Positions 20,959 through 40,173 are shown, counted from the first letter of the stretch. The stretch is DNA of 64,000 bases from Candidatus Bathyarchaeota archaeon (GCA_963775685.1 CAVZJV010000014.1:1728001-1792000); one strand, 5' to 3'. Notes: generated by a model from the letters alone, not told the origin. A program made the numbers and translations.

Positions 20959-22041
20959 ATGCCAAAAAACTTCACCTACACAGATGCAGGCGTCAATCGA
21001 CAACAGCGCCATGAATCAAAGAAAGCCCTAGTCGCGCTTAAAGAAACATATAAGCACATCGGTTTTGGCGGTATTATGCATTTGCCCTACAGCAACATAT
21101 TCCCAATTGGCGCCAACGCTTTTCTTGATCTTGAAATTGAAGGCGTCGGAACAAAAGTGCTAGTTGCCGACCTCGCAGACAAATATGACACTATTGGTAT
21201 AGATGCAGTGGCAATGGTAGTTAACGATGTTATCCGCTCGGGAGCTAAACCTCTAGCAATTGCAGACAACATCCATGCAACTGCCAGTAAACCTGAACTC
21301 GTAAAAGCTTGGCTCAAAGGCATCATTCAGGGCGCAAATGAATCGGAGTGCCCAGTTACAAACGGCGAGACAGGTGACGTCGCAGAAATAATCAAAGGCA
21401 TCACCCCCAACTCAGGCTTTGACATTGTTATCTCCTCAGTGGGCAAAGTGGAAAGCCAAGACATCATTACGGGCGAAGGCATCAAGCCAGATGACCCAAT
21501 CATTGGCTTAGCCAGCAGCGGCGTCCATAGCAACGGCATCACCCTTGTTCGGAAAATTCTCTTCAAGCAGTGGGGTGGAAAATACCTGCCAAACGACGTA
21601 CCCAAAGGTTTAGACAGGGAAGTTGCACTTGAGGTTTTGGAACCTACAAAAATCTACGTTAAGCCGCTCCTCAAACTCGTACACGAAGTCAAAGTTAAAG
21701 CCGCCGTGCATGTAACAGGCGACGCATTCACCAAATTCAACAACTTGGCGAACTACTCGCCGGGCATAGGCTTTAAGTTCAACAATTTTAAGCCCCAACC
21801 AATCTTTGGATTGATCCAGAAAACTGCCGCTGAACTCGGCTACACCATAACCGACGAGGAAATGTTCAAGACATTTAACATGGGCTGGGGCTTTGGCATT
21901 ATCGTTGACAAAGCAGACACAGATAAAGCCATGGACAACCTTGAGCAAAACAGCATGGTTCCCCAGTTGATAGGCAAAGTCACCAACAAAGAAAGAGTAG
22001 TTGAGATAGAGCACCAGAACAAACGTATGGTTTTAATGTAA
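20959..22041 (+). CDS. purM: AIR synthetase
   Basis: YTDAGV, EGVGTK, GETG, SSGVHSNG, HVTG, TFNMGWG. Confidence 0.93.
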   Translation: MPKNFTYTDAGVNRQQRHESKKALVALKETYKHIGFGGIMHLPYSNIFPIGANAFLDLEIEGVGTKVLVADLADKYDTIGIDAVAMVVNDVIRSGAKPLAIADNIHATASKPELVKAWLKGIIQGANESECPVTNGETGDVAEIIKGITPNSGFDIVISSVGKVESQDIITGEGIKPDDPIIGLASSGVHSNGITLVRKILFKQWGGKYLPNDVPKGLDREVALEVLEPTKIYVKPLLKLVHEVKVKAAVHVTGDAFTKFNNLANYSPGIGFKFNNFKPQPIFGLIQKTAAELGYTITDEEMFKTFNMGWGFGIIVDKADTDKAMDNLEQNSMVPQLIGKVTNKERVVEIEHQNKRMVLM

Positions 22042-22098: not shown

Positions 22099-22350
22099 AT
22101 GAAATACGCTGCAAAAATTGAAGTCAGCCTCAAACCCGGACACAGCAACCCGGAAGGCGAAACCACCGCACGACTACTAATCGAACTCGGCTACAAAGTA
22201 GATGCAGTGGACGTTAGCAAAGTCTACACCGTAACCCTTGACGCAGCCTCACCAAAGGAAGCCAAAGCAAAAGCTGAAGAAATGAGCAAACGCCTCCTGG
22301 CAAACCCAACCAAAGACAACTACACCATAAGCGTCGCTGAGCAGAAATGA
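22099..22350 (+). CDS. purS: FGAM synthase subunit PurS
   Basis: LKPGHSNPEG, LLANP. Confidence 0.93.
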   Translation: MKYAAKIEVSLKPGHSNPEGETTARLLIELGYKVDAVDVSKVYTVTLDAASPKEAKAKAEEMSKRLLANPTKDNYTISVAEQK

Positions 22351-24734
22351 ACTCGGAACTCTATACCCAACGCAAAAACAGCCAAGTTTTAGAATTTCCC
22401 ATAGCAAAAGCCACCAAAGAGCAGCTTTCTGAAATTAACAACGAACTTGCTTTGGGATTTAGCGCAGAAGAACTGGATGCAATCCAAGCTTATTTTAAAA
22501 AAGAAAAACGCAATCCCACTAATGTGGAGTTGCAAACAATAAGTCAAACGTGGAGTGAGCATTGCTGCCACAAAACGTTTAAGGGCAAAATCCAACTCAA
22601 CGGCAAAGAAATCCAAAGCCTCTTTAAAACCTACATCGCAAAAGCCACGAAACAAATCAAAGCACCTTGGTGCGTAAGCGTTTTTGAGGACAACGCAGGC
22701 ATCGTAAAGTTTGACAAAGGCTATGGAATCGCGGCAAAGGTGGAAACACACAATCACCCATCCGCTGTGGAGCCGTTTGGAGGGGCAGCAACAGGCGTGG
22801 GCGGTGTTATCCGCGACATTTTAGGTGTGTGGGCTGACCCAATTGCGTGCACCGACGTTTTGGGTTTTGGACCCTTAGATTACGATTACAGTAAACTTCC
22901 AGCAGGCGTTAAACACCCAAAATACTTGTACATGGGCGTAACAGCAGGCATCAGCGCATATGGTAACAACATGGGCATCCCAACAGTCAACGGCGCAATA
23001 TACTTCGACGACAGCTACACGGGCAACGTCATAGTGTACTGCGGTTGCATCGGACTCTTACCCCTAAACAAGTACAACAAAAACGCTAAAATCGGAGACA
23101 TAGTTGTTTTGGCAGGCGGCAAAACAGGACGCGACGGCATCCACGGCGTAACCTTCGCATCCGCTGAACTCACCGAAAAATCAGAAGAAATCTCAAGACC
23201 CGCCGTACAAATAGCTGACCCAATCGAGGAAGAAAAAGTCAAACGGGCAATTATAGAGATTCGGGACTTGCGGTTGGGCTCGGCAATAACAGACATTGGC
23301 GGGGGAGGGTTATCTTCAGCTGTAGGTGAAACGGCTGAACGTTTTTGTTGTGGCGTGTCAATTGACTTGGGGAAGGTTCCTTTGAAGTATCAAGGATTAG
23401 CGCCATGGGAAATCTACCTTTCCGAATCCCAAGAACGCATGCTCCTAACTGTGCCGCCCGAGAATTTGGAGCGGGTTATGGCTGTTTTCGAAAAAGAAGA
23501 TGTACAAGCCAGGGCTATCGGTAAACTAATTCCGGAAAGGCGATTGCAACTCAACTACAACAGTGAAATAGTCTCCGATATCGATATGGAGTTTATGTTC
23601 AATCCCTGTCAAAGCACCAAAGTAGCAACCATCGAGAAGCCAAAACTAACTGAACCAGAGTTTGATGAACCAACAAACATAACAGAAACACTCCTACAAT
23701 TACTCGCAGCCCCCAACATCGCCAGCAAAGAATCTGTGATACGCACCTACGACCACGAAGTCAAGGGCAACACAGCCCTCAAACCCCTACAAGGCGAGTA
23801 CGCTGGACCAAACGACGCAGCAGTTCTCAAACCGTTGGACGATTCGATGAAGGGCTTAGTTATATCATGCGGCATGAACCCAAACTACGGCAAGATTGAT
23901 GCTTACTGGATGGCGGCTTCAGCAATCGACGAAGCCATGCGAAACAACATAGCTGTCGGTGGAAGAAGAATTTCGCTTTTGGACAATTTTACTTGGGGAA
24001 ACCCAGAGAAAACAGAACGGTTAGGCTCACTGGTGAGAGCTTGTCAAGCGTGCTACGATTTCTCGGTGGCGTTCAAGGCACCGTTTATTTCAGGAAAAGA
24101 CAGCCTCTACAACGAGTCGCCACTGGGTCCCGTGACCCCAACGCTCCTAATAACGGCAGTCGGCGTAATCTCCAACATCCAATCAACCATAAGCATGGAC
24201 CTCAAAACCCCAGGCAACAACCTCTACATCATCGGCGAAACATTCAACGAACTAGGCGGCAGCGAATACTACAAACTCAAAGGCTTCTCAGGTGTATCCG
24301 TCCCTAAAGTCAAAGGCGCAAAGGCCAAACGAACCTTCAAAGCCGTCACCAAAGCCATCGACGCAGGCTTAGTTAAATCGTGCCACGACCTTTCGGAAGG
24401 AGGGTTAGCTGTGGCGGCAGCGGAGATGGCGTTTGCAGGTGGCTATGGCTTAGAAATCAATTTGCAAAAAGTCCCAGGCAAAGACCTTGCGCGCAACGAC
24501 TTTGTATTGTTCTCTGAATCCAACAGCCGGTTCCTAATGGAGGTCATAGAAGCAGACAAAGAAGACTTTGAGGACTTAATGAAAGGCAAAAGCTGCATCC
24601 TGATAGGAAAAGTAACCAAAGAACAAAAACTAAAAATCAAAGGCCTACATGGAAAAGCTGTGGTTGATTTAGCACTTGAAACGCTTCGGCGCAGCTGGAA
24701 GAGAACTTTGAGTTCAGAGAAGATGCCACAATGA
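22347..24734 (+). CDS. purL: FGAM synthase subunit PurL
   Basis: WSEHCCHK, ETHNHPS, GAATGVGG, SESQERM, HDLSEGG. Confidence 0.96.
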   Translation: MNSELYTQRKNSQVLEFPIAKATKEQLSEINNELALGFSAEELDAIQAYFKKEKRNPTNVELQTISQTWSEHCCHKTFKGKIQLNGKEIQSLFKTYIAKATKQIKAPWCVSVFEDNAGIVKFDKGYGIAAKVETHNHPSAVEPFGGAATGVGGVIRDILGVWADPIACTDVLGFGPLDYDYSKLPAGVKHPKYLYMGVTAGISAYGNNMGIPTVNGAIYFDDSYTGNVIVYCGCIGLLPLNKYNKNAKIGDIVVLAGGKTGRDGIHGVTFASAELTEKSEEISRPAVQIADPIEEEKVKRAIIEIRDLRLGSAITDIGGGGLSSAVGETAERFCCGVSIDLGKVPLKYQGLAPWEIYLSESQERMLLTVPPENLERVMAVFEKEDVQARAIGKLIPERRLQLNYNSEIVSDIDMEFMFNPCQSTKVATIEKPKLTEPEFDEPTNITETLLQLLAAPNIASKESVIRTYDHEVKGNTALKPLQGEYAGPNDAAVLKPLDDSMKGLVISCGMNPNYGKIDAYWMAASAIDEAMRNNIAVGGRRISLLDNFTWGNPEKTERLGSLVRACQACYDFSVAFKAPFISGKDSLYNESPLGPVTPTLLITAVGVISNIQSTISMDLKTPGNNLYIIGETFNELGGSEYYKLKGFSGVSVPKVKGAKAKRTFKAVTKAIDAGLVKSCHDLSEGGLAVAAAEMAFAGGYGLEINLQKVPGKDLARNDFVLFSESNSRFLMEVIEADKEDFEDLMKGKSCILIGKVTKEQKLKIKGLHGKAVVDLALETLRRSWKRTLSSEKMPQ

Positions 24735-25549
24735 ACACCGAGGACATTAAAATCTGCGTGCTGCGTGTCGGCGGAACCAACTGCGACGCTGAAACCCAAC
24801 GCGCCTTCCAAGAACTCGGTGTACAAGCCGAAACGGTACATGTTAACGAACTTATCAAACGCCGCAACCTGCTCGATTACAACGTGCTGGTTTTCCCAGG
24901 CGGCTTCTCATTTGGCGACTACGTACGTTCAGGCGTCATCTTTGCAAGGCATCTTTCAACCCAATTAGGGAAGGAAATTGAAACCTTCGTTGACGAAGGC
25001 AGACCAATATTGGGTATTTGCAATGGATTCCAAATCCTCGTCGAATACGGTTTGCTCCCAGGATTCCAAGGAATAAGTACCTACCCCGAAGCAACGTTAA
25101 CAACCAATGAACCAGCAGGCTTCAAGTGCCAATGGGTTTACCTAAAACAGGAAAACAAGAGCAAATGCGCCTTCACAAGTAAAATCCCCGCCGAAAAAAC
25201 CATCCAGCTACCAATTGCACACGGTGAAGGAAGATTACTCTTCCCTAAGGAAAAAGAAGAGTCTCTACTAAAGAAACTGATCGACGAAGACATGCTGGTT
25301 TTCCGTTACTGCACCAAGGAAGGAAAAGTAGCCGACAGCAAATACCCCGCCAACCCGAACGGTTCATTCTACGACATAGCAGGCATCTGCAACAGAGAAG
25401 GCAACATTTTTGGTTTGATGCCACATCCCGAGAGGGCAATGTACTGGTGGCAACAACCCGACTGGACACGCCAACAACAAATGCTACAGTACGGCGACGG
25501 CAAACTAATCTTCCAAAGCATCATCGATAAACTAACCAAGAAGTGCTAA
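24731..25549 (+). CDS. purQ: FGAM synthase subunit PurQ
   Basis: GTNCD, GGFSFGD, GICNGFQ, AHGEG, MPHPER. Confidence 0.96.
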   Translation: MNTEDIKICVLRVGGTNCDAETQRAFQELGVQAETVHVNELIKRRNLLDYNVLVFPGGFSFGDYVRSGVIFARHLSTQLGKEIETFVDEGRPILGICNGFQILVEYGLLPGFQGISTYPEATLTTNEPAGFKCQWVYLKQENKSKCAFTSKIPAEKTIQLPIAHGEGRLLFPKEKEESLLKKLIDEDMLVFRYCTKEGKVADSKYPANPNGSFYDIAGICNREGNIFGLMPHPERAMYWWQQPDWTRQQQMLQYGDGKLIFQSIIDKLTKKC

Positions 25550-26446
25550 ATCCTTAGCGTAAGGCAATCCCGTGCGAGCACCCATCACCGTAACGCTTCG
25601 GGAAGCAACAAAATTGGCAAGTTGTCCGCATTCGTAAAGGGTTTTACCATGGATTAATCCGTAAAGAAAACCCGCGTCGAATGCATCTCCTGCGCCAGTC
25701 GTGTCGACAACTTTTACTTTGAAGGGGTCTATGCTAAGTCTTTCTTGTCCGTCAGTGACGTAGCAGCCCTTGGCGCCAAGTTTTACCGCAACTATTTTGA
25801 CGCCCATCGCAATCATGAAGTCGGCGCCTTTGCGGTAATCAGTTTCGCCGGTTATTTGTTCAAGTTCAATGAGGTTAGGCAGCAAAACGTAAGAATTCCT
25901 AATCATCGGCTCTATTACGGCAAAACCTTTCTGTGCATACAGTGAACCGGGGTCAAAGCTGATTTTAACTTCATCAGGCAACGAACTTAACAGCTTTTTT
26001 TGTGCACGAAAAGATTTCTCGCCCACAAAGGAAGATAAGTGCAAGAATTTGGATTGGGAAACGTATTCCCATTTGATCTCGCGGGGCTCAACTAAGTCGT
26101 TGACGCCTGAGTTTATGTAGAGGGCTCTTGCGCCTTTTCTGTCCACAAAACCCATCACTACGCCGCTCTTGCCTTTCGTTGCCACTGTTATGCCATTGAT
26201 GTCGACACCTTCGGTCTTTAAATTGTCGATTTGAAGTTTTCCTTCGCGGTCGTCTGCGACTTTCCCGATGAAGCCTACTTTGCCGGCTAGCCTAGCCAAC
26301 CCAACTATGGTGTTTGCAGCTGAACCTCCGCAGGCTTCCGTGTAGTCTTCAATGAAGCTTTCTTCTTCCGCACATACAAGTCGCTGCACTTTGAAAAGCA
26401 TATCGACATTAAGTGCACCAAAACCTATTACATCAAATTTTGTCAT
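25532..26446 (-). CDS. PfkB/ribokinase family kinase (EhaT-like)
   Basis: GGSAANT, DTTGAGDAFDAG; 4-nt overlap with the ftr-like gene. Confidence 0.9.
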   Translation of the reverse strand: MTKFDVIGFGALNVDMLFKVQRLVCAEEESFIEDYTEACGGSAANTIVGLARLAGKVGFIGKVADDREGKLQIDNLKTEGVDINGITVATKGKSGVVMGFVDRKGARALYINSGVNDLVEPREIKWEYVSQSKFLHLSSFVGEKSFRAQKKLLSSLPDEVKISFDPGSLYAQKGFAVIEPMIRNSYVLLPNLIELEQITGETDYRKGADFMIAMGVKIVAVKLGAKGCYVTDGQERLSIDPFKVKVVDTTGAGDAFDAGFLYGLIHGKTLYECGQLANFVASRSVTVMGARTGLPYAKDLALLG

Positions 26447-27348
26447 GAAAATAGCTCTCTTAATTGGATTTTGTATTCGCCAAGTTTACCGCCGTAGTTA
26501 CCACCGGAGACCCGTACAACCCCTTCAATGTCTAATACTGCGTTTATACCTTTTTTTGTGGCTTCTTTGATTGCGTCTAAGGAAATCCCGTCATAAACGA
26601 TTTCGGCGATGTATCCCACGCCATCTGGAACCAGTGATTCCGCGCCTAAGCGTGCCTTGAGCGAGGGACAGTGGAGGTGGTTGGTTGTTGGTCCGATTTT
26701 TGGGAAGTGGGTTTCGGGTTTAGAGCCTGCGGAGCAAATGTCAAAGGTGGTCACGACGCCATAAACCTTATGAATGGACTTTAAGGCTTTGGCGCCCGCT
26801 TCCTTAAGCGCTTGTTTAGTGCCACACATTACCCAGAAATTGCCGCCCATCACCCCGCGCGCATAACCCAAGTAACGTTCGACAACAAAGTCCGGAACCA
26901 TCAATGGAACCACAATGACCTCTCTACCATACCGAGTTTCAACCCACTCGTAACCATCGCCACAGTGACCTACACGCTCCATCATGTCCAATTTCCCCTC
27001 AGCTCTCGGCAGGGCGTCGAATACAGCCGTGAATGGTTTTACAAGTATGTCTTGGCGAATACGATAGGACAACTCAGTTTCGAATTTTTTTAGGGATTCT
27101 TGGAAGGTTTTTTTCGGGCTAATTTCTCCCCAGAACTGCAGGATTGCGCCAACCCTTTTATCCGGAGTTTCGTTTGGGCGGAGGTATTTTTCTACCCCGC
27201 CTTCTGTTCTGCCTATAACAACCGATGGAGTTGCAGTCGAGTCTTCGGCTGCTTTACGCAATGTTTCGGGATCGTCGGCAGTCAGTATTATGCGGCAGAA
27301 TACACCCGCGAACGCTTCGATGTAAGTATCATCGATTTTTTTATTCAT
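26443..27348 (-). CDS. Formylmethanofuran:H4MPT formyltransferase-like protein (Ftr paralog, EhaS-like)
   Basis: IDDTYIEAF, TPDKRVG, GGNFWV, GSKP, EIVYDG, GNYGGKLG. Confidence 0.85.
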   Translation of the reverse strand: MNKKIDDTYIEAFAGVFCRIILTADDPETLRKAAEDSTATPSVVIGRTEGGVEKYLRPNETPDKRVGAILQFWGEISPKKTFQESLKKFETELSYRIRQDILVKPFTAVFDALPRAEGKLDMMERVGHCGDGYEWVETRYGREVIVVPLMVPDFVVERYLGYARGVMGGNFWVMCGTKQALKEAGAKALKSIHKVYGVVTTFDICSAGSKPETHFPKIGPTTNHLHCPSLKARLGAESLVPDGVGYIAEIVYDGISLDAIKEATKKGINAVLDIEGVVRVSGGNYGGKLGEYKIQLRELFS

Positions 27349-28440
27349 TTACCCAAGTCCTCCAATATCTATGCCCCGAACCTTATTGCGAAACATGCAA
27401 CTCTCTTTCACAAGTGCGTCCACATTTTGAGGAGTGATAATTTGAACGCTCGGCAAGGCTCCAGGATATACTGAATAAAGCTGTTTTAGGAAAACAGAGT
27501 TTACACCGCTCTCTTCTACCGCTTGTTTGCACCAAAACAAAATCACTTTTAGAGTCTGGGCTTTTCCCAACCTACAGAACAAGTCAGCAACTAGGGCGGT
27601 AATGAGATTGCTTTCGGAGAACACTGCAACCTCAGCGCTCCTAACAGCATAACTGTTGCCATTAAAAGAGACAGCTAAGCCACCACCAGCGCGGACCAGT
27701 TTGAAGGCTTCCATGTCGGTTATGCTGTCGCCAACATAGATTACATCCGCCAATCGTACGCCTAAACGTTTTGCAGCATCACGTATAGCCTCAGCTTTTT
27801 GTGCCCCACCAACCGTAACCACATCTGTGAGGAATTTGCCAACAAACATTTTGGGGACGTCACTCCAGAAGATCTCATCCAACCGCTGGATCACCGATAG
27901 GTCGCTATGGGAAAAATCTTGAAGAGTTCTTGCCCCAAGTGGAATATCGATTAACTGCATTTGCGCGATTTCTTGCGCTATTTCCTTTAAACGCTCTTTT
28001 TCTTGGGGAGTTATGGCGATTTTGTCGAGGCTGACTTTGGTGCAGTAAGTGTTTTTGTATGGGAAATCGACGACGGTGCAAAGGGCGCGGATGTAGTGTT
28101 CATAACTGGTGCTGACGATGAAGGCGTCGGCTATGTCTTGTATATAGTGTAGGGTGGTTTGGGTGTTGGCGATTAGTAGGATGTTTTGGGCAGAGAACTC
28201 TTCCATCTGGCGGTCGGTTACGCCATATGCTTTGAAGAAGGGCAAAATGAGCTTTAACGTGCTGCCCGCGGAATACCCAGGTTTCTTCAGTATATCTGCA
28301 AGCGTATCGTCGTATTTGCTGATATTAGCAAAAAAGCTGTCACCGTTTGGAATAAAATTAGCCGCCAACTCAAACGCATTATCATTTTTTGAGATAGGTC
28401 CTTCGCAATCAGAAACAAAAACACGCTTCAAACCCTGCAC
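27349..28440 (-). CDS. HAD-superfamily hydrolase (EhaR-like)
   Basis: FVSDCEGPISKND (motif I), STSY (II), YVGDSITD (IV), SFNGN. Confidence 0.8.
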   Translation of the reverse strand: MQGLKRVFVSDCEGPISKNDNAFELAANFIPNGDSFFANISKYDDTLADILKKPGYSAGSTLKLILPFFKAYGVTDRQMEEFSAQNILLIANTQTTLHYIQDIADAFIVSTSYEHYIRALCTVVDFPYKNTYCTKVSLDKIAITPQEKERLKEIAQEIAQMQLIDIPLGARTLQDFSHSDLSVIQRLDEIFWSDVPKMFVGKFLTDVVTVGGAQKAEAIRDAAKRLGVRLADVIYVGDSITDMEAFKLVRAGGGLAVSFNGNSYAVRSAEVAVFSESNLITALVADLFCRLGKAQTLKVILFWCKQAVEESGVNSVFLKQLYSVYPGALPSVQIITPQNVDALVKESCMFRNKVRGIDIGGLG

Positions 28441-29840
28441 CTCAACTGCTCCATGTGTCTGACGCTTTTGGCTATGTGATGTTTTTCTGCCACGTCGGTT
28501 CGGTTCCAGAGCGCACCACCCTTGATTGCTTTGGCGCCTTCTTGGCTTATTTGGCGTGCTTCCTCGATGCTACTGCCTATTCCCAGAATACCGATAGCAC
28601 GGGATTTGAGCGCATAGTTTTTGCCGTCACGTACCTCCATGGAGCCTGGGTAGATGCGGATTTTGTCGCCGTACTTTTCGGTTAGGTCTTCGGCTTTAGT
28701 TAGATCGACCGGTGTGTTGATGAAGGCTTTATCCACTTTGTCTGGGTGTGCTTCGGCGTAGCCGCCGTAGTCTGCGGGAACCTTATAGGTCAGCACCGTC
28801 GCCGACTTCTCCATAGCGACCCCCTTCAGGTTGCCGTCAATCATTCTGAGGCATACGTCGACGAAGTCGTTTTTAATGACCGGGAGGAGGTTCATGATTT
28901 CGGGATCTCCTGGGCGACTGTTTATTTCTAGGATTTTTATGTCTTTGCCCGTGTGAATGAAAGCAAGGTAGAGTGGAACGCCGCGGAGTGCCGAATCGTC
29001 AAGGATTTTTGCCTTCCATCCATTGAAAACCCGGTCAGCTAAAGCAAGTTCTTGTTCACGTTCAGAGGCAGTGAGGAAAGGCAGGTAATCGCCGACATCT
29101 TTGTATGAACCCATACCGCCTGTGTTTGGGCCTTTGTCATCATCGAAGGCGCGTTTGTAGTCGCGGGTGTCGGGCAACATCATGAAGTGTTTGCCGTCGC
29201 AGAACCCCATACAACTGGATTCTTCCCCGTCAATTTTTTCCTCTATAATTACTGAGTCATATTGGAAGTTAGACATGAAATGCTCGAAAAGTTGTTCGCG
29301 GTTTGCGAAGTGGTCTCCCCAAACGCCCACGCCTTTACCCAAGGCCGGTTTGTCAGGTTTAACCACAGCCTGATTATCGAGTTCGTCTAGCCACTCGTAA
29401 ACAGCCTTTCGTACATCTTTGCCTTTGTAATCGGTAGGGTGGAAAATCCGAAAACGGGGATTAGCGTCCGGCGCAATCTCCTCGAAGAGTATGCGTTGGG
29501 CAATTTTGCTGCCTTCGATGGCGTAGTCTTTTTTGGGGCAGATGACAGGTATGCCGGTTTGTTCCTCGACTAAGTCGCGTATGCCCTCAATTATGGGTTT
29601 CTCGGAGCCAACCATAACGAAGTCCAGGTTCTCCTTGTTTTCTTGGGCAAACTTGCATACTTCGTCAATGTTGAGGTTTGGGATGACTTTGTGTTTGGCG
29701 GCGTGTTTTGCATTGAAGGGATTGCGTTGTTTGTCGGCAACGAAAAGTTCAACTCGGTAGTTATTGCTTCTTAAAAGTGCGTCTGCCATAGCGACTTCCC
29801 GTGCGCCGTAAGAAACTAGTAGGATGCCTATCTTCTCCAT
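28428..29840 (-). CDS. purD: Phosphoribosylamine-glycine ligase
   Basis: GAREVAM, GKGV, DYKRAFDDDKGPNTGGMG, EINSRPGDPE. Confidence 0.93.
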   Translation of the reverse strand: MEKIGILLVSYGAREVAMADALLRSNNYRVELFVADKQRNPFNAKHAAKHKVIPNLNIDEVCKFAQENKENLDFVMVGSEKPIIEGIRDLVEEQTGIPVICPKKDYAIEGSKIAQRILFEEIAPDANPRFRIFHPTDYKGKDVRKAVYEWLDELDNQAVVKPDKPALGKGVGVWGDHFANREQLFEHFMSNFQYDSVIIEEKIDGEESSCMGFCDGKHFMMLPDTRDYKRAFDDDKGPNTGGMGSYKDVGDYLPFLTASEREQELALADRVFNGWKAKILDDSALRGVPLYLAFIHTGKDIKILEINSRPGDPEIMNLLPVIKNDFVDVCLRMIDGNLKGVAMEKSATVLTYKVPADYGGYAEAHPDKVDKAFINTPVDLTKAEDLTEKYGDKIRIYPGSMEVRDGKNYALKSRAIGILGIGSSIEEARQISQEGAKAIKGGALWNRTDVAEKHHIAKSVRHMEQLRCRV

Positions 29841-29889
29841 CTAAGATACACCTTAACTGACTAATCAGTGGAGGAACTCTTTATAGCGG

Positions 29890-31378
29890 TTACGGCTGGA
29901 CTTCTTCAGATTCGTAAATCCTGTTTTTCTCTTCATAGCCTTCGAGGAAACGTTTTTTCATGACATCAGACATTTTCTGCGCACACAGCGTCGGGTACTT
30001 GCCAGTGACGCAGGCTAAGCAAAGTTGGTTTTCGGTTTGTCCTGTGGCCCCGATTAAGCCCTCCAACGACTGGTAGCATACGGCGTCGGCGCCGATAATT
30101 TTGGCGATTTCTTCAGGATTATTTCGAGATCCGATAAGCTGCCCATAAGTGGACATGTCGATCCCGTAGAAACAGGGTCCGATGATTCGCGGGAAAGTCA
30201 CGAAAAGATACACTTTTTTGGCGCCTGCCTTGCGGAGTTTTTCTATAATGACTTTGGTGGTGTCGCCGCGGACAACGCTGTCTTCGGTTATTATAACTCG
30301 TTTGCCTGCTACTTTGCTGCCGAGAATGTTGATTTTTTTGTCGATAGTTGAGTAGCGTTCGTTGTTGAGCAATATGAAGGCACGTTCGGTTACGTAGCGG
30401 TGGCGTCTTGAGGCACGTTCCCATCTTAGACCTGACGCTTCATGGACTCCCATTGCTGGGTCGTCGCCGGTTTCAGGCACCGACATGATGATGTCGCTGT
30501 CTTTTACGATTTCTGGGAATTCTTTAACAAGGTTTCTTCCGAATTCTTCTCGGATTTCGTAGACGTATTTGCCGTCAAAACGTGAGTCGGGTCTTGCAAA
30601 ATAAGCGTATTCGAAACAGCAGAAGGCTTCACGTGGATTCTCTATGATTTGGGTGCGTTTGAAGCCGTTTTCCGAAACCGTCACGAGCTCGCCGGGTTTC
30701 AACTCGAAGTCTCTCACAAAACTATTCATGTCTAAGCTTACGGTTTCAGAGGAAAAAGCGAAAGTTTTGCCTTCAGGGTCATGTCCAGCGCACAATGGCT
30801 TTATGCCATAGGGGTCTTTGAAGGCAAAGAATTGGCCATCGCCTGTTATGCCTGTTACGGAGAATGCGCCGTCCAAGGTTTTCATAACGGTGCCAGCTGC
30901 AGAGGTTAAGTCTTGACCCTGTTTTAAGGCAAGGAGCATTTTATGGCACACAATGTCAGAGTCGCAGTTGTAAAGAAAATCAGAAAAGTTTTGGTTCATC
31001 TCTTTTTTGAGCGGCAACGTGTTAACGATGTTGCCGTTAAAGGAGAGGGCAAGTTTTATTCTGCCTGAGGAGGCAAGGACAGGTTGTGTTCCGTCGATTA
31101 TGGAGACGTCGTCGCATTTGCCTGAGGTTGTGTAGCGTACATTACCGATGCCGATGGATCCAGGTAGACGTGCGAACCATTCAATTATTACGCTTGTTTT
31201 CAGTTTTGGGACAAGATCAAGTGCTTTGTAGGTATAAAATTGGTTATTGTTGCTTGTTAGGAAACCGTGTGATTGGTGTCCTCGATGATTTTGGGCTCGT
31301 AGTCCCCAGTAAACATAAGGGAAAACGGGTTTTTTATCGTAATTTATTGCACCAAAGATACCGCAGCCTATCTTCCAG
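29890..31378 (-). CDS. purF: Amidophosphoribosyltransferase; ORF-track start at 31017 is too short
   Basis: Frame is open up to CGIFG (Cys at 31363-31365); HRGHQS, RYTTSG, NGNI, EDSVVRGDT, PCFYGID; start codon non-canonical or frameshifted. Confidence 0.93.
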
Positions 31379-32262: not shown

Positions 32263-33696
32263 TTATGGTTGCCATTTCTCTATGAGATATTTGGGTATCT
32301 CGCTACTGTCGCGTGGTCCAACTTGGACTTTCCAGCCGCTGAGTTCTTCGATTTCGCCGCTGATACGTGAGGCTTTGCCTGGGCTGATGATTTTGCGGTG
32401 TTTAACTTTGCTCTCTATGCCTGAGGCTTTGATTGCATCTGCGACGCGCTCGGCGGTTAGTTTGCGTCCTGCGACTCCGCTGTCGATAGCTGAGCCTTCT
32501 GTGTCAACAACGATCAGGTACGCATTGAGTTTGTTGCTTTCGATGTCTGAGGCGACTGTGTAGTAGGTTAGGGCAAAGTTTGAGGTGAAGAGGACTGGTG
32601 CGTTTTCGTCTGGGGTGCCGTAGACTTTGAGTCCTGGTGCAACTGCAACTGGTTTGCGTGGGTCAGTGTAGATGTTCTGGCGCAGTACTGTTGTCGGGAG
32701 TAGGGCCCATCCGTCGTTGCCATGCATGACAAGTACATCTGCGTAGCGGACAACAAGCATTGAAGCGACGTATGCTTCGCGCCATTTGATAAGGTCGTCT
32801 GCTGTGTTGCCTTTGTCTACCCAAGCGACCATTGGAACACCAAGTAAGGGGAAGCCTGCGAGTTCTTCGCCACCTTTGGTTGCTGCGCGGCGTAGCATGG
32901 TAAAGTTGTTTATAGTGTCTGGTAACCCTTCGTTTATGAAGGTGCCAGGGTCAAGAACTATGTCTGTTACACTATAAGCCAATAAGGTTTTCGCTAGTGA
33001 AACCAACGTGTTCAGGTCGTTTGGTGAAGATGCTACGATTGGGCAATTGTACATTAATGCGAGTTCTGCCATGTCTTTCCAGTTGCTTGAGGTTGCTGCA
33101 TAGAGCAGTGGGCGTGCTTTTGGTGCTGCCATTAAGCCCGCTTCAGCAATTGCTGGGTTGAGGGTGCACAAAATCATCGGCAGTTGGGTTATTTCGGATA
33201 CTTTTTTAACGCATACTTTGAATTTGTCTGCGTCTTCGGATGTGCATCTGATGGCTATCATGTCGAGTTTTAGGGTGTTGCCGATGTATTCGAAGGTAAA
33301 GTTATCTGTTTTTTGTACGCGAGAAACGATTTCTTGCTCACTCATCTCATCGGTTACGTCGATTGCGATGGCTGTGGGGTTCTTGTATGTGAATTCGTGA
33401 CGGTACATTACAAGTTTGCCACCGATTTTCTTTGCTTTGTCTCCGACGCCGACGATGACTTCTTTAACTGCCGGTTTTAGCATTTCTTTTAGTTTAGCGT
33501 ATGATGTTGCGTTTTCTGGTTTAAGCAGTGGTTTGCAGCTGTCGAGTTCCGTTTCGCGGTTAACGATTTTTGTTGCAAACGCCATGCAGTTGTCTACGCC
33601 GCATTCTTTACAGTTAATTTTTGGCAATGCCTTGTAAATGTCGATTGGGCTAAGTTCTTTTAATCCGCCTTTTTTCTTTTCTGCCATTTGTGTCAT
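32263..33696 (-). CDS. cdhE: ACDS complex gamma subunit (CFeSP large)
   Basis: LPKINCKECGVDNCMAFA, IYTDPRKP, NFALTY, GPRDSS. Confidence 0.95.
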   Translation of the reverse strand: MTQMAEKKKGGLKELSPIDIYKALPKINCKECGVDNCMAFATKIVNRETELDSCKPLLKPENATSYAKLKEMLKPAVKEVIVGVGDKAKKIGGKLVMYRHEFTYKNPTAIAIDVTDEMSEQEIVSRVQKTDNFTFEYIGNTLKLDMIAIRCTSEDADKFKVCVKKVSEITQLPMILCTLNPAIAEAGLMAAPKARPLLYAATSSNWKDMAELALMYNCPIVASSPNDLNTLVSLAKTLLAYSVTDIVLDPGTFINEGLPDTINNFTMLRRAATKGGEELAGFPLLGVPMVAWVDKGNTADDLIKWREAYVASMLVVRYADVLVMHGNDGWALLPTTVLRQNIYTDPRKPVAVAPGLKVYGTPDENAPVLFTSNFALTYYTVASDIESNKLNAYLIVVDTEGSAIDSGVAGRKLTAERVADAIKASGIESKVKHRKIISPGKASRISGEIEELSGWKVQVGPRDSSEIPKYLIEKWQP

Positions 33697-33702
33697 GTCT
33701 CC

Positions 33703-36339
33703 TTAAGCTTTTACGTTGACCCAGCTTGCGTATTTGGCTGAATCTGCTTTTTTGCCGCTTGTTAGGTAGTTTGTGACGTCTTTTAGTGTTTTAACGGCTG
33801 CAGGATGCATCATCATGAATAGGTCAACGCCTGCAAGCAACAGGGTTATGGCTGTTGTTACTTCCCAGAGTGGGCCTCGGAGTTCGCGTGGTTCCCATTC
33901 AGCGCCCATTTTGAGCCATGCTTCTCTTGCTGCCCAAGCGTTGGTCGTGCCTGAGGACATAGGGTGTGCAAGTTCTGAGTCGCCCATTAAGCCGCCCATT
34001 CTGGCGCGTTCCATGTTTGTGAATGCGTAATCTAAGCCGTAGCCTAAGGCTGCTGTAGTTAGGTCCATAACGATGTCTTCTCTTTCGACATAGTCATAAA
34101 GGCGTCTATTGAGTTCGCGTGCTAAATTAAGGTCCATGGGTGTAAATGAGAGGATTGCATGGCCTGCTTTTTTGATGAATTTTGCACATTTTTCTACGTC
34201 CATGTCGCGTGTAACAGAGCTGATTAGGAAGCGTTCACCTGGGAACTGAGCACATACTTCTTCGAAGACTGCTGTGTCTTTAACTGGGTCTCCACATCCG
34301 CCTATGACAATTGGTACGTCTACTGCTTGCAGAACTTTCTCGATGGTTTTACAAGCTTCTTTTGGTGACGAATCTTTGAGTAGTGGGTCAATACTGATCA
34401 AATGCATCGTAACCATGTCTGCGCCGAATTTTTCGACTGCAAGTTTTGCCCATGCTGCGGGATCGCCGACGACGTCTTTAACGTGCATCTTAACCGCCTT
34501 TGACAGGGGGACTTCCATATCGAAAACATCTAGAGTAATGACTGGTTTGTGAGGCATAGGATTCTCAAAAGTGTAGAAGGCAGGAGATACTTCTCCGCCG
34601 ATTGTGAGTGATCTTCCGCGTGTGCCGCCTTCGCTTTTTGTTGCACCAAGTTTTACTTCAGTGATTTTATTGGGGTATTTTTCGATTGGCGGTAGGAAAG
34701 CTGCCTGGAGCATACTGAGGGGTTTGCCACCTGCTATGGCTGCTTGTGGAAGCTTTAATTTGGGCATTATTTGGCCAGCTGCGCCTGCTTCGAAGAGGAT
34801 TTCCAGTTCTTTGACATCCATTTGGAAATCTTCCAGCTCAATTTGTTGGAATTTTGCAAGAGCTTCCATGAGCTCCTCGCTTAGCTGTAATTCTTCAGCG
34901 TCTTTTTTCTTGTCTGTGTCGTGGTGAGTCGTTGGAATCACCGTTTGTCTTTTGACGGTTTGGATGATGACTTTGTTTGCGTAGATCTTTGCGTCTTTTA
35001 AGATTATCTTAAATCCGCCCGCCATTATGGGCAGTGAGCCTGCTGTCGCAACTGGCAACATTGTGCCTGCTGCTTCCTCGTTAACTGTTATAGCTTGTGC
35101 TTCTGCGGCTGGAGCTTCTGTTTCCCATTTCGCTACGACAGGGTGGTTCTTTGACTTCAAGAATGCTTTTAGTTCATCGACATTCTTGGCATCTTCTTCA
35201 GTAGCAATTTTGTCAACAACGTCTGCGGGGATGAAATCTTTTACTTTTTCTTTAACTTCTTTAGGTACCCAAACAATGCGATTCCAGCCACCATCTGCCG
35301 CAAAGAATTTCTTACTTCGCATGTATTCGATAGACATTCCGTGGAATCCGTCTATCTGACGTCCACCTGCTGCTGAATCCGCAAGGGTACTGAAGGGTAA
35401 GCCGTTTACCGCTGCGCCTTTGAAGTTTCTTTGAACTACACCTAGTCCGTCGACTTCTGGGATGTAGAAGGTTACTGCTTCGAAGCATCCGCATGAAGTG
35501 TGTGGATGGTCAAATGCTGTGTAGAGCCAGACTTGGTTAACTTCGCCCATGCTGCGTTTCTTGGCTGCTTCGTTAACACCGCTAAATTCGCCTTTCTCTT
35601 CGTTGAGCATTTCGCCTCTTGGAATTGCGAAGACTGGACCCTTAGGATCGATGCTTGCTGAGGCTTTACCGTCAAACCAGCTGATTGCACCGCAGTTACT
35701 GTAACGTTGTGGTGTGATGACGCAAACGTGGCTTGGGGCGAATGATTGACATAGGGCACATCCATAGAATGTATCGACCTCCGAGTCTTTAAGACCTCTG
35801 GCTTTTGCGTCGCGTGATTCGTAGGCTTGAATGGCCTCAGGGGTCATTTCATCGAGTTTTGCTGGGTCGGTTATGAAGGTTATTTGTGCTTTCTCGATGA
35901 TTGGCAACTCACTCTTGAATAGACGGTAGAGAACTTTACCGATCGCATCAAAGCTTGTTAAACCTTTTTGGAAGGATTTTTTGCCCAATCGAATCCAGAT
36001 GTCGTATCGCTGGTTTAGGTGCATAAAGCCCTCAATGTAGTTTAGGTATCCGTGAATGCGCCTTTCAATGACACCTTCAAGACCTGCATCGATTTTTTCG
36101 CCTGCTGCTTCAACAAGGATACCGAATGGGTAAGCGCCGCCTTCTTTCATGTCTTTTAAGTCTGGACCGATGATGGTGATTTTTCCATCGTCGATTTCAT
36201 TCATGGGTTTTACTTTTGCCAGTTCAAACTTTTGTTTGACTGTGGGTCCGCCGAGTTCTACTTGCATGTCATTTCTTCGGATACGTTCTCCTTCGTAGAT
36301 TACGCCAACTTCAACAGGTATATCTTTAAACATTGACAT
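33703..36339 (-). CDS. cdhC-cdhD: ACDS beta subunit (about aa 1-469) fused in frame to delta subunit (about aa 470-878)
   Basis: Beta: YGCALCQSFAP, HTSCGCFE; delta: GATKSEGGTR, LGYGLDY, AWAAREAW, MMMHP. Confidence 0.92.
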   Translation of the reverse strand: MSMFKDIPVEVGVIYEGERIRRNDMQVELGGPTVKQKFELAKVKPMNEIDDGKITIIGPDLKDMKEGGAYPFGILVEAAGEKIDAGLEGVIERRIHGYLNYIEGFMHLNQRYDIWIRLGKKSFQKGLTSFDAIGKVLYRLFKSELPIIEKAQITFITDPAKLDEMTPEAIQAYESRDAKARGLKDSEVDTFYGCALCQSFAPSHVCVITPQRYSNCGAISWFDGKASASIDPKGPVFAIPRGEMLNEEKGEFSGVNEAAKKRSMGEVNQVWLYTAFDHPHTSCGCFEAVTFYIPEVDGLGVVQRNFKGAAVNGLPFSTLADSAAGGRQIDGFHGMSIEYMRSKKFFAADGGWNRIVWVPKEVKEKVKDFIPADVVDKIATEEDAKNVDELKAFLKSKNHPVVAKWETEAPAAEAQAITVNEEAAGTMLPVATAGSLPIMAGGFKIILKDAKIYANKVIIQTVKRQTVIPTTHHDTDKKKDAEELQLSEELMEALAKFQQIELEDFQMDVKELEILFEAGAAGQIMPKLKLPQAAIAGGKPLSMLQAAFLPPIEKYPNKITEVKLGATKSEGGTRGRSLTIGGEVSPAFYTFENPMPHKPVITLDVFDMEVPLSKAVKMHVKDVVGDPAAWAKLAVEKFGADMVTMHLISIDPLLKDSSPKEACKTIEKVLQAVDVPIVIGGCGDPVKDTAVFEEVCAQFPGERFLISSVTRDMDVEKCAKFIKKAGHAILSFTPMDLNLARELNRRLYDYVEREDIVMDLTTAALGYGLDYAFTNMERARMGGLMGDSELAHPMSSGTTNAWAAREAWLKMGAEWEPRELRGPLWEVTTAITLLLAGVDLFMMMHPAAVKTLKDVTNYLTSGKKADSAKYASWVNVKA

Positions 36340-36342
36340 TTT

Positions 36343-36892
36343 TTAATTTCCTCCATTATTTTCAAATTTTGAGGTCATTACTTTGAGGTTTGCAGCCCAC
36401 TCTTCAAGAGTTGCGTTTGGGAAAGACCAGCTTGCGTGGACGTGGTAGAGGTTGTCGATGGTCATGGTTTTTTGATCTGGTGCAAAGTGCTTCATGCCTG
36501 AAAGCATCAATGATTCAACATAGTATGGTAGTCCAACCAAGATAACTAGGATCGGGGTGGCCTTTGCCGTCCAGTCCCATCCATTCTGGGTCAACTACGC
36601 GCTGTCCGATTTCCATTGCGTTCATGAATGCCGCTGGTTGGTAGCCTCTTTTGAGGAATTCGCCAACCATATGGGCTGTTGCGACAACTGGCACTTTGGA
36701 GGCGTTAGCGAAGTCAACTAGGTATTCGATGAGTTGTTTGCCTTCCATGTACCTCTCAGTGGCGTTGCTTCCGACAATAAGAAGGGGACGTTGGGCGCGT
36801 TTTATCATTGCTACTGCTATTTCGGGTTTTTGTATGGGGTTTGCTTTTTTAGTTGATGCGATTTCGGCACATTGCCATGGTTCACAGGACAT
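36343..36892 (-). CDS. cdhB: ACDS epsilon subunit, 1-nt frameshift near 36549
   Basis: AMIKRAQRPLLIVG, WMGLDGKG, GLPYY, LKHFA-like MKHFAP, HASWSF. Confidence 0.88.
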
Positions 36893-36907
36893 TGTTTTTT
36901 CCTCCGT

Positions 36908-39255: not shown

Positions 39256-39391
39256 TTTGGAAACCTCTGTAAAGGTTTATGACTATGCTGCATTACAGAG
39301 TTTTTAAACCTTTCCAGTTTTCTTAGGCAAAAGTCACGGTGTAGTTATAGAAATGCAAGGTTTCCAAAAAATTGTGTAAAAGTTCTATGGA

Positions 39392-40156: not shown

Positions 40157-40173
40157 ACAAAGCCACCTCAAGT

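Follow-up and report, generated by a model that had tools for sequence, protein, structure and literature searches.

An Ftr paralog in the purine operon of Bathyarchaeia is a candidate for the missing GAR formyltransferase

How is GAR formylated, at step 3 of purine synthesis, in an archaeon whose genes for the neighbouring steps lie together without any recognisable gene for this one? The window, i.e. the whole 64-kb stretch of DNA analysed here, comes from the genome of a Bathyarchaeia archaeon (96.9% complete). The first-pass annotation had described in it a set of pur genes, a HAD protein, an Ftr paralog and a PfkB kinase, all of which are confirmed by the ORF coordinates and family scans:

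purM: 20959-22041, plus strand; AIRS/AIRS_C domains; step 5
purS: 22099-22350, plus strand; PurS domain; step 4
purL: 22347-24734, plus strand; FGAR-AT linker with AIRS; step 4
purQ: 24731-25549, plus strand; GATase_5 domain; step 4
PfkB: 25532-26446, minus strand; PfkB-family ribokinase-like kinase; Pfam PfkB, 176 bits
Ftr2: 26443-27348, minus strand; Ftr paralog; FTR 144 bits, FTR_C 166 bits
HADl: 27349-28440, minus strand; HAD-superfamily protein of the EhaR/AF1437 family; weak Pfam HAD matches, match to PDB 1Y8A
purD: 28428-29840, minus strand; GAR synthetase, step 2; GARS_N, GARS_A and GARS_C
purF: 29890 to ~31371, minus strand; amidophosphoribosyltransferase, step 1; GATase_6 and GATase_7, TIGR01134 below cut-off

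The minus-strand genes are thus read in the order purF, purD, HADl, Ftr2, PfkB and converge with purM-purS-purL-purQ. purD and HADl overlap by 13 nt, HADl and Ftr2 are separated by a 0-nt gap, and Ftr2 and PfkB overlap by 4 nt, exactly as first annotated; Ftr2 would be translationally coupled with purD, HADl and the ribokinase-like PfkB. The convergent PfkB and purQ overlap by 18 nt. The five-gene arrangement is seen in 73 of the 80 best related genome loci, a recurrence far above chance, and the remaining seven lack at least one of the five genes, some of them being contig ends (L094, L099 and L111 are noted as cut). Ftr2 is followed by PfkB in 77 of these 80 loci, and the convergent layout with purM-purS-purL-purQ is also found in G090, G131, G031 and most of the related loci compared. 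No eha gene is present within the 64-kb window.

Both genes at the head of this run score below their family cut-offs. purF reaches 322.7 bits against TIGR01134 (cut-off 350), and its frame contains no ATG, GTG or TTG upstream of the catalytic Cys ('GCGIFG'). Its likely start is a conserved ATA at 31371, two codons before this Cys, so that the end first given for the region, 31378, lies a few bases too far. The stretch 'AAA ATA GGC TGC' is conserved in 11 of the 14 relatives' loci examined (L041, L043, L045, L047, L050, L054, L057, L060, L062, L072 and L077), and an ATG aligns with the ATA in relative L044. purD is of a divergent type (233 bits against TIGR00877, cut-off 288).

The step-3 gap of this genome is real. 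Neither PF00551 (the PurN family) nor PurT is found in the window, as the first-pass annotation had claimed, or in the whole genome, at 96.9% completeness. The best genomic 'PurT' match (49 bits) was rejected, as it is a 1139-aa ORF of carbamoyl-phosphate-synthase size. PurH and PurO were not found in the genome either, and PurP, which serves the other formylation step, is present in two adjacent copies. A separate canonical ftr, which the first-pass reading called for next to the absence of purN and purT, is found at C14:1475129-1475995 (Ftr1). Mch, MfnB and FwdC are also present, so that both formyl carriers are expected.

To which genes, then, does step 3 fall in related genomes? Among the 122 purD-bearing genomes of a sample of 151 Bathyarchaeia, 52 carry Ftr2 only, 49 a PF00551 (PurN-like) gene only and 12 a PurT-like gene only, while seven have none of the three candidates and two have two of them; these raw counts overstate independence, because genomes of one class are kin. 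The two genomes with two candidates are G001, whose 'PurT' match was rejected as a PurK beside PurE, and G149, an Ftr2-bearing genome in which a PurN-like gene lies with FolD on a separate 11-kb contig. In purD-bearing Bathyarchaeia, Ftr2 hardly ever co-occurs with a PurN-like or PurT-like gene, and the anticorrelation predicted in the first-pass annotation is therefore observed. The switch of step-3 solution happened more than once, since families f11 and f21 each hold more than one solution. Every one of the 57 Ftr2 genomes has HADl, as do all five genomes with a divergent PurN (PurN'), whereas the 89 others lack it. One genome, G081, keeps Ftr2 and PfkB, has no purD, and its HADl is truncated.

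The position of these genes points in the same direction. Ftr2 lies at most 2.2 kb from purD in 51 of 54 genomes, a PF00551 gene within ~1.5 kb of it in 19 of 50, and a PurT-like gene adjoins it in 4 of 12. The place downstream of purD is held elsewhere by PurN, by a PurT-like gene or by PurN' with FolD, and this sharing of one operon place had not been foreseen in the first-pass annotation. The order is purF-purD-PurN'-HADl in G028, G034 and G140; PfkB comes next in G028 and G034, with FolD following as well in G034, and the G140 contig ends within HADl. In these three genomes a folate-type formyltransferase replaces Ftr2. PurP was not found in any of the five PurN' genomes, which suggests that the gene in the Ftr2/PurN' place is a direct transformylase, not a formate supplier. 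HADl and PfkB would belong to the functional module of Ftr2, since both also accompany the divergent PurN that replaces it. Ftr2 thus has the operon place, and in our proposal the pathway place, of the folate-dependent PurN and the formate/ATP-dependent PurT, but it is unrelated to both in sequence and fold: there is no PF00551 or ATP-grasp match in HADl, Ftr2 or PfkB. Its donor would be the methanopterin/methanofuran pool, instead of 10-formyl-tetrahydrofolate or formate and ATP.

The linkage to pur genes is not a property of the whole clade. Of 80 metagenome Ftr2 loci, 45 are unlinked to pur genes, as are 12 of the 26 with 3 kb or more on each side, ANME-1-like ones included; near the unlinked copies lie, among others, GcvH, an MtdB-like gene and FBPase/PFK/aldolase-like genes. 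Ftr2 is also unlinked in G391, a genome of another class (95% complete), where it is abutted by a remote HADl homolog; purD is present in G391, and no PF00551 or PurT-like gene was found. G391 is an independent lineage pairing Ftr2 with the absence of PurN and PurT. The co-location expected in the first-pass annotation is thus seen near purD in Bathyarchaeia genomes, but not in 45 of the 80 metagenome loci or in G391.

A similar pairing can be drawn from published gene inventories. Excerpts from Brown 2011 (PMC3261824) report that purN and purT are absent from two Archaeoglobi, four Methanobacteriales and M. kandleri, and excerpts from Chadwick 2022 (PMC9012536) report the same for ANME-1, in line with the first-pass annotation, which mentions lineages without a recognisable GAR formyltransferase. 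The same excerpts of Chadwick 2022 (PMC9012536) mention an uncharacterised 'Ftr2' in ANME-1, ANME-2a/b, Archaeoglobales, M. kandleri and M. marburgensis. As far as these excerpts go, the PurN/PurT-less lineages (Archaeoglobi, Methanobacteriales, M. kandleri and ANME-1) are ones reported with Ftr2; in ANME-2a/b, Ftr2 is reported although PurN is present. In the literature searched, we found no paper tying Ftr2 to the absence of PurN and PurT.

Is the Ftr2 protein suited to such a role? The two-lobe FTR (distal) and FTR_C (proximal) architecture spans the whole protein of ~300 aa (PF01913, 144 bits, residues 4-149; PF02741, 166 bits, residues 152-299). Lobes and length are those of solved Ftr proteins (1FTR/2FHJ from M. 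kandleri, 1M5H from A. fulgidus, 1M5S from M. barkeri) and of FhcD (6S6Y), and E-values against solved Ftr proteins range from 6e-49 to 1e-41. Ftr2 scores 314.5 against the subfamily model NF002554, above the cut-off of 297, and 214.3 against the equivalog model TIGR03119, below the cut-off of 292.6. It is 37% identical to the Ftr1 of its own genome and 34-41% identical to Bathyarchaeia Ftr1 copies. Two FastTree trees, one of 59 and one of 163 sequences, place Ftr2 in a clade apart from all characterised Ftr proteins, whereas Ftr1 of the same genome groups with methanogen representatives; the Ftr2 clade holds both pur-linked and ANME-1-like metagenome copies. The signature of Ftr2 comprises W73, GHC129GDG, W172, C205, E212-T213 and IGPT, the GHCGDG standing where Ftr has F-x-DG. 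E249 of Ftr2 ('AEIV') aligns with the E of 'YEIV' in 1FTR, 1M5H and 1M5S, and this catalytic Glu is conserved in Ftr1 and in linked and unlinked Ftr2. The catalytic glutamate of M. kandleri Ftr is Glu245. In FhcD the oxyanion-stabilising catalytic glutamate is Glu252, according to an excerpt of the relevant paper (PMC6926001). Altogether 22 positions, the catalytic Glu included, are common to Ftr2 and Ftr1; as the NF002554 cut-off is also passed, Ftr2 may have a conventional Ftr activity.

From the gene content, gene order, exclusivity, operon replacement and motifs observed, we infer the acceptor, donor and reaction of Ftr2, which is probably the missing GAR formyltransferase of step 3, fed from the H4MPT/methanofuran C1 pool. 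Ftr2 would formylate GAR, or a very close derivative, in archaea without PurN and PurT, keeping the Ftr fold and catalytic glutamate. The formyl group would come from N5-formyl-H4MPT, made by Mch, or from formyl-methanofuran, made by Fwd, and be moved onto the primary amine of GAR, which would stand in for the methanofuran aminomethyl group of the normal Ftr reaction. By analogy with Ftr, Ftr2 would thus keep an H4MPT/methanofuran-bound formyl group and a primary-amine partner; it would differ in its acceptor, GAR and not methanofuran, and its gene differs in lying in a purine operon and in being exclusive with PurN and PurT. The computational checks favour this core of the first-pass idea, without the clade-wide linkage. 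In an excerpt of Brown 2011 (PMC3261824), formyl-H4MPT is cited as being no functional formyl donor, a remark that concerns N10-formyl-H4MPT.

Alternatively, Ftr2 could be an ordinary second formylmethanofuran:H4MPT isoenzyme, present in the pur operon through co-regulation or history, GAR being formylated by another unrecognised protein, such as a tandem PurP-like ATP-grasp acting on GAR with formate. We consider this unlikely, even though the NF002554 score, the catalytic Glu and the 21 further positions common with Ftr1 are in agreement with it, as is the position of some clade members beside C1 genes (GcvH, an Mpt_N-type dehydrogenase). Furthermore, no Ftr other than the pur-linked copy was found in four relatives (G031, G139, G035 and G001), all of which have Mch; FwdC is above cut-off in the first three, and G001 has only a 61.6-bit match, below cut-off. 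Ftr2 may keep canonical activity there, or these genomes may be too incomplete to show Ftr1: ~3-4 missed Ftr1 would be expected among 57 genomes from incompleteness alone. The two adjacent PurP genes of the source genome could provide the other enzyme, and purP duplications are left unexplained in the excerpts of Brown 2011 (PMC3261824). However, tandem PurP pairs also occur in the PurT-like genomes G005, G016, G073 and G119, only one PurP-like gene is present in several Ftr2 genomes, and PurN' genomes have none. An isoenzyme also leaves unaccounted for why Ftr2 almost never occurs beside PurN-like or PurT-like genes in a genome, and why its operon place is taken elsewhere by a PurN-like gene and FolD.

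Another possibility, which we find very unlikely, is that Ftr2 formylates glycine or phosphoribosylamine and that the divergent PurD joins the pre-formylated piece, giving FGAR without free GAR. purD is indeed divergent (~206-270 bits, below the cut-off of 288) in nearly all genomes with Ftr2 and HADl, compared with ~300-505 bits in most PurN/PurT-like genomes, and the purD-HADl adjacency is kept in G044 and G001 although Ftr2-PfkB moved elsewhere. Nevertheless, Ftr2 and HADl are found with a canonical purD in G031 (397 bits) and G391 (385 bits), family f15 has a divergent purD without HADl or Ftr2, and the RPGDPE motif of purD is intact. The least probable reading is that the module frees formate from the H4MPT pool, like bacterial Fhc, to feed PurP and an unknown formate-dependent GAR ligase: the formate-requiring PurP is present in 53 of 57 Ftr2 genomes and an excerpt (PMC6926001) places the Ftr homolog FhcD in a formate-releasing complex, but domain scans and relatives' loci reveal no amidohydrolase (FhcA/FwdA-like) gene in the module, PurN' genomes keep HADl and PfkB without PurP, and, once the G001 PurK match is set aside, no PurT-like gene was found in Ftr2 genomes.

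With Ftr2 as the probable GAR formyltransferase, what could its two partners contribute? HADl (363 aa) has weak Pfam HAD matches, over residues 167-282 only, and its closest solved relative is PDB 1Y8A (AF1437 of A. fulgidus; E 4e-35 over residues 6-290), a structural-genomics protein without assigned function with which it has the D-x-E-G-P first motif in common. The four HAD catalytic motifs are present (D11; S110/T111; K215; D238 with D242), with E13 where HAD proteins usually have a second Asp, and the C-terminal tail is conserved. D11, E13, G14, P15, S110, T111, K215, G237-D242, R351, R355 and G363 do not vary from Bathyarchaeia to homologs of ANME-1, Methanocellales and Methanosarcinales; for the catalytic motifs, this holds for 10 sequences of Bathyarchaeia and for 11 that cover three orders. 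HADl and the L151 homolog have 31% identity over the full length, and 24 of the 120 best relatives of the latter are named 'energy-converting hydrogenase A subunit R' (EhaR) by JGI; one look-alike cluster listed in the Atlas is also named EhaR (0.98). By these sequence matches, HADl belongs to the EhaR/AF1437 family. The best NCBIfam match of PfkB is TIGR02152 (ribokinase; 166 bits, below the cut-off of 299.65), and it scores 129-150 bits against ribose-1-phosphate kinase models, far below their cut-offs.

The trio thereby resembles EhaR-EhaS-EhaT, whose three genes close the Methanothermobacter eha operon, a parallel drawn in the first-pass annotation that largely stands: HADl is in JGI's EhaR family, and an excerpt of Kaster 2011 gives EhaS as Ftr and EhaT as ribokinase, annotations that match Ftr2 and PfkB. 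Methanobacteriales likewise have neither purN nor purT in the excerpts of Brown 2011 (PMC3261824). In Bathyarchaeia, however, HADl-Ftr2-PfkB follow purD and not hydrogenase genes.

One tentative extension, which we hold to be possible but doubtful, is that HADl-Ftr2-PfkB (EhaR/S/T in methanogens) could form a complete third GAR formylation system, acting at the riboside level. The EhaR-type phosphatase would take the 5'-phosphate off GAR, Ftr2 would formylate glycinamide riboside from N5-formyl-H4MPT, and the ribokinase-like kinase would re-phosphorylate the product with ATP. N5-formyl-H4MPT is a weak formyl donor; if this scheme is true, one ATP would drive the step, as in PurT, and purine C8 would derive directly from the Wood-Ljungdahl/methanogenic C1 pool. 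The scheme would also give a reason for the co-transcription of the trio and the anaplerotic Eha hydrogenase in Methanobacteriales, because formyl groups drawn off for purines need replacing.

The first-pass annotation had described three tightly coupled genes behind purD. This gene set and its junctions are borne out by the ORF list and family scans of the window, which give the following features:

20959-22041, plus strand: purM
22099-22350, plus strand: purS
22347-24734, plus strand: purL
24731-25549, plus strand: purQ
25532-26446, minus strand: PfkB, a ribokinase-like kinase
26443-27348, minus strand: Ftr2, the pur-linked Ftr homolog
27349-28440, minus strand: HADl, a HAD-like protein of 363 aa
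28428-29840, minus strand: purD
29890 to about 31371, minus strand: purF

According to the ORF list, purF-purD-HADl-Ftr2-PfkB on the minus strand converge on purM-purS-purL-purQ on the plus strand. The purD/HADl, HADl/Ftr2 and Ftr2/PfkB junctions are a 13-nt overlap, a 0-nt gap and a 4-nt overlap, respectively, a spacing typical of translational coupling. No in-frame ATG, GTG or TTG precedes the codon for the catalytic Cys of purF, whose start is likely a conserved ATA at 31371 (31363-31371, minus strand), two codons before this Cys. The stretch AAA ATA GGC TGC is kept in 11 of the 14 relatives' loci examined (among L041-L077), directly after a stop codon in 6 of these 11, and in L044 an ATG occupies the position of the ATA. 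In a promoter and terminator scan of the window, promoter-like sites were not commoner than in shuffles, the patterns used being bacterial consensus ones that are uninformative for an archaeon. No RNA data set carrying the locus is listed, and two soil DNA runs hold small shares of it. Just beyond purF, and abutting the purine cluster, lies an acetyl-CoA synthase/CO dehydrogenase (cdh) cluster (32263-40171, minus strand) with a CdhD-type protein (477 aa), a CdhC-CdhD fusion (878 aa), an epsilon-like ORF (83 aa) and a CooC-like ATPase; its Prismane-type alpha subunit occupies two ORFs (227 and 539 aa), which may reflect a frameshift or a real split.

The genome comprises 14 contigs (3.06 Mb, 96.9% complete), and close homologs of its Ftr2 and HADl bear the names Bathyarchaeota or Bathyarchaeia. 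The expectation that it would hold a separate Ftr and neither purN nor purT was confirmed on both counts. No PF00551 (PurN-family) gene was found in the whole 96.9%-complete genome, nor was PurT found genome-wide, the top match to the PurT model (49 bits) being a 1139-aa ORF of carbamoyl-phosphate-synthase size. Step 3 is thus the only purine step without a recognisable enzyme here. PurH and PurO were not found in this genome; two PurP genes, side by side, are available for AICAR formylation further down the pathway. These tandem paralogs (G000:C14:1214143-1215782; 374 and 368 aa) have counterparts in many Bathyarchaeia genomes, with Ftr2 or with a PurT-like gene. The separate copy, Ftr1, stands alone elsewhere in the genome, is 37% identical to Ftr2 and groups in the tree with methanogen Ftr representatives, Ftr2 falling in a separate clade; the context of Ftr1 (eRF1 and an inositol-monophosphatase-like gene) is uninformative. 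Mch, MfnB and FwdC are present, so that N5-formyl-H4MPT and formyl-methanofuran should both be available.

Such a gap has precedents. The relevant section of Brown et al. (2011; PMC3261824) reports that purN and purT were not found in two Archaeoglobi, M. kandleri and four 'Methanomicrobiales', which, by the species named there, are Methanobacteriales. Chadwick et al. (2022; PMC9012536), in the section on this pathway, add ANME-1 to these lineages and write that the lack 'suggests that there is an as yet unidentified enzyme'. Another section of the same paper describes an uncharacterised 'Ftr2' in ANME-1, ANME-2a/b, Archaeoglobales, M. kandleri and M. marburgensis, and in these sections the two observations are left unconnected. 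A full-text search, outside which most subscription journals fall, and a look-up of terms in PMC9635834 found no literature linking Ftr2 or EhaS to purine synthesis.

One sample of 151 Bathyarchaeia genomes was searched for Ftr, PF00551, PurT, purD, HADl and PurP. Matches to the window's Ftr2 are bimodal (Ftr2 type, at least 49% identity; Ftr1 type, at most 41%). Read from the match list, the Ftr2 type occurs in 57 genomes, one of them with a contig-end fragment, PF00551 genes in 54, PurT-like genes in 13 and purD in 122. The predicted anticorrelation with purN and purT was found: among the 122 genomes with purD, 52 carry only Ftr2, 49 only PF00551 and 12 only a PurT-like gene, versus two with two candidates (G001 and G149), and seven carry none; as the sampled genomes are kin, these counts overstate independence. 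The 'PurT' match of G001 was rejected, being PurK followed by PurE, and in G149 a PurN-like gene and FolD sit on a separate 11-kb contig. Five families without purD (f10, f14, f16, f19 and f26) have none of Ftr2, PF00551 and PurT-like genes. Two families are mixed, f11 with Ftr2 in two genomes, a PurT-like gene in eight and PurN in one, and f21 with Ftr2 in three and a divergent PurN in two. The type of purD also varies: nearly all HADl-bearing genomes have a purD scoring about 206-270 bits on TIGR00877 (cut-off 288), and most genomes with PurN or a PurT-like gene one scoring about 300-505 bits. The exceptions are G031 and G391, with Ftr2 and a canonical purD, and family f15, with a divergent purD and no HADl. 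Tandem PF00551 genes were also observed, right after purD in G111 (L034, G111:C22) and in G137:C20, and on another contig than purD in G048:C17. The first gene (274-285 aa) matches only positions 1-152 of the PurN model and the second nearly all of it; the longer paralog is the sole PF00551 type in family f18.

Ftr2 and the known enzymes share an operon place. In 51 of 54 genomes Ftr2 and purD share a contig and lie at most 2.2 kb apart; in the other three Ftr2 is either 18 kb away (G044) or placed at a contig end (G050 and G007). Of 50 genomes, 19 have a PF00551 gene no more than about 1.5 kb downstream of purD, and a PurT-like gene adjoins purD in 4 of 12. In G028, G034 and G140 the order is purF, purD, a divergent PurN (PurN', 280-330 aa) and HADl; PfkB follows in G028 and G034, the contig of G140 stopping within HADl. 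After PfkB comes FolD in G034 and an ORF with N-terminal similarity in G028. G010 and G002 have purF, purD and PurN' in a row, with HADl, PfkB and FolD together elsewhere. The best model match of PurN' is PurN (51-77 bits), with PurU lower, and PurP was not found in any of these five genomes. A role of PurN' as a PurU-type formate supplier was rejected, given these scores, the lack of an ACT domain and the lack of PurP. A folate-type transformylase and its donor-making enzyme in the place of Ftr2 are a classic signature of non-orthologous displacement.

HADl is found in 62 of the 151 genomes, namely all 57 with Ftr2 and the five with PurN', and in none of the other 89. This points to HADl being part of a non-canonical formylation module, not of general purine housekeeping. 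In a HADl profile scan of genome contigs, the best 80 of 586 relatives are all from Bathyarchaeia; Ftr2 adjoins HADl in every one of these 80 best loci from species genomes, and 79 of them also have purD, 77 PfkB and 75 purF, some of the loci short of a gene lying at contig ends (L094, L099 and L111 are cut). HADl keeps the HAD catalytic scaffold, with Glu for the second Asp (DxEGP), and has a conserved C-terminal tail, FRxxVR...G.LG; a Glu is likewise known there from enolase-phosphatase E1. Among solved structures, AF1437 of A. fulgidus is the one most closely related to HADl. PfkB is ribokinase-like and scores under every equivalog cut-off.

The suggested parallel with ehaR/S/T, which end the eha operon of Methanothermobacter (HAD-like, Ftr-like and ribokinase-like), stands at the level of the HADl family, from homologs named EhaR, and not as a comparison with a Methanothermobacter locus. 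A HADl homolog on L151, a metagenome locus without pur linkage, is 31% identical over its full length. The 120 best relatives of this homolog belong to ANME-1 lineages (Methanophagales, Methanospirareceae), Methanocellales and Methanosarcinales, and by our own count 24 of them bear the JGI name 'energy-converting hydrogenase A subunit R'. In the Atlas, a look-alike cluster of HADl is named EhaR; cluster look-ups gave no EhaS or euryarchaeal names on Ftr representatives, and Ftr2 used as an Atlas query did not discriminate. The long Ftr proteins proved to be Fwd/Fhc-type fusions (amidohydrolase-Ftr, Ftr-GXGXG) in which no pur, HAD or PfkB parts were found, and no HADl homologs of 637-2000 aa were found, which is weak evidence. 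One 3173-aa representative (P0129) has 24 separate Ftr-matching stretches (33% identity); it could be a giant protein built of repeated Ftr-like segments, or else an artefact of assembly. On L022 (G081:C1:1526392-1528203), a 604-aa ORF joins an N-terminal part, which opens with a GxGxxG-type nucleotide-binding motif, to the C-terminal 254 residues of HADl.

Ftr2 is probably the missing GAR formyltransferase, and would be a third, non-homologous one that belongs to the Ftr family. Alternatively, Ftr2 could have an ordinary Ftr activity. It scores above the NCBI Ftr subfamily cut-off, and in four relatives the pur-linked copy is the only Ftr found, with Mch in all four and FwdC above cut-off in three; however, four misses of Ftr1 are about the number expected from genome incompleteness alone. 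Three further observations count against a GAR role. One is G081, which keeps Ftr2 and PfkB, with purD not found and HADl truncated, and whose module may be decaying. A second is that ANME-2a/b, in the published sections concerned, reportedly have both PurN and Ftr2. The third is that purD linkage, expected to be conserved across the Ftr2 clade, is not universal: a profile of divergent Ftr2 representatives recovered 80 metagenome loci, of which 35 show linkage to purD, HADl or PfkB and 45 do not (14 and 12, respectively, for loci with at least 3 kb on both sides).

Some unlinked copies (L131, L143, L148, L151, L185 and L194) are on ANME-1-like contigs, an assignment drawn from the names of HADl homologs. 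Their neighbours are FBPase (class V or class I), ATP-PFK, a 390-440-aa class-II-aldolase-like protein and an isocitrate/isopropylmalate-dehydrogenase-family gene, and on L151 an EhaR-type gene lies three genes from Ftr2. Another unlinked set is beside GcvH and an Mpt_N-type methylene-H4MPT dehydrogenase. Linked and unlinked copies are interleaved in one clade of the tree and have the same signature residues; a single function for both is probable. Among 301 genomes sampled at the level of the phylum, only one outside Bathyarchaeia scores as Ftr2 type (G391, 95% complete). Its canonical purD is on another contig than Ftr2, and PF00551 and PurT-like genes were not found in it. A remote HADl homolog (hhalign probability 96.9%) abuts this Ftr2, which also has Ftr1 and cdh genes as neighbours. 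On L154 (8941-13202), a MazE/PIN toxin-antitoxin pair and three paralogous genes (214, 375 and 540 aa) separate an Ftr2-type gene from a distant HADl homolog, as though an insertion had split what was once a gene pair.

Overall, that the Ftr paralog formylates GAR, as first proposed, is likely and strongly supported by comparative genomics, through the pathway gap, the mutual exclusivity, the shared operon place with its PurN'/FolD swap, the conserved Ftr catalytic glutamate and the presence of the carrier-making enzymes; the reaction itself is inferred. Ftr2 would run the Ftr reaction with the aminomethyl-carboxamide amine of GAR replacing the aminomethyl-furan amine of methanofuran, the formyl group coming from N5-formyl-H4MPT or formyl-methanofuran. 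An amide-to-amide formyl transfer of this kind is near equilibrium and would be drawn onward by the ATP-driven reaction of PurL. From their distribution, HADl and PfkB appear to be needed with Ftr2 and PurN' and not where canonical PurN or PurT is present. Their roles could be read coherently, if speculatively and with rather low probability, as a riboside bypass in which the substrate would be dephosphorylated, formylated and re-phosphorylated.

That Archaeoglobi, Methanobacteriales and Methanopyrus are missing a GAR formyltransferase was pointed out in 2011 and again, for ANME-1, in 2022, and a question open for 15 years is now directly testable. If true, the candidate would fill one of the few remaining holes in the universal purine pathway with a third, non-homologous solution for GAR formylation, and the methanopterin/methanofuran C1 pool would be a direct source for nucleotide synthesis, contrary to what had been thought. 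It would also assign a function to AF1437, a structural-genomics protein, to 'EhaR/S/T' and to the 'second Ftr', which is widely mis-annotated, point to a biosynthetic target specific to methanogens, and correct a pathway hole in reconstructions of Bathyarchaeia, ANME-1 and gut methanogens.
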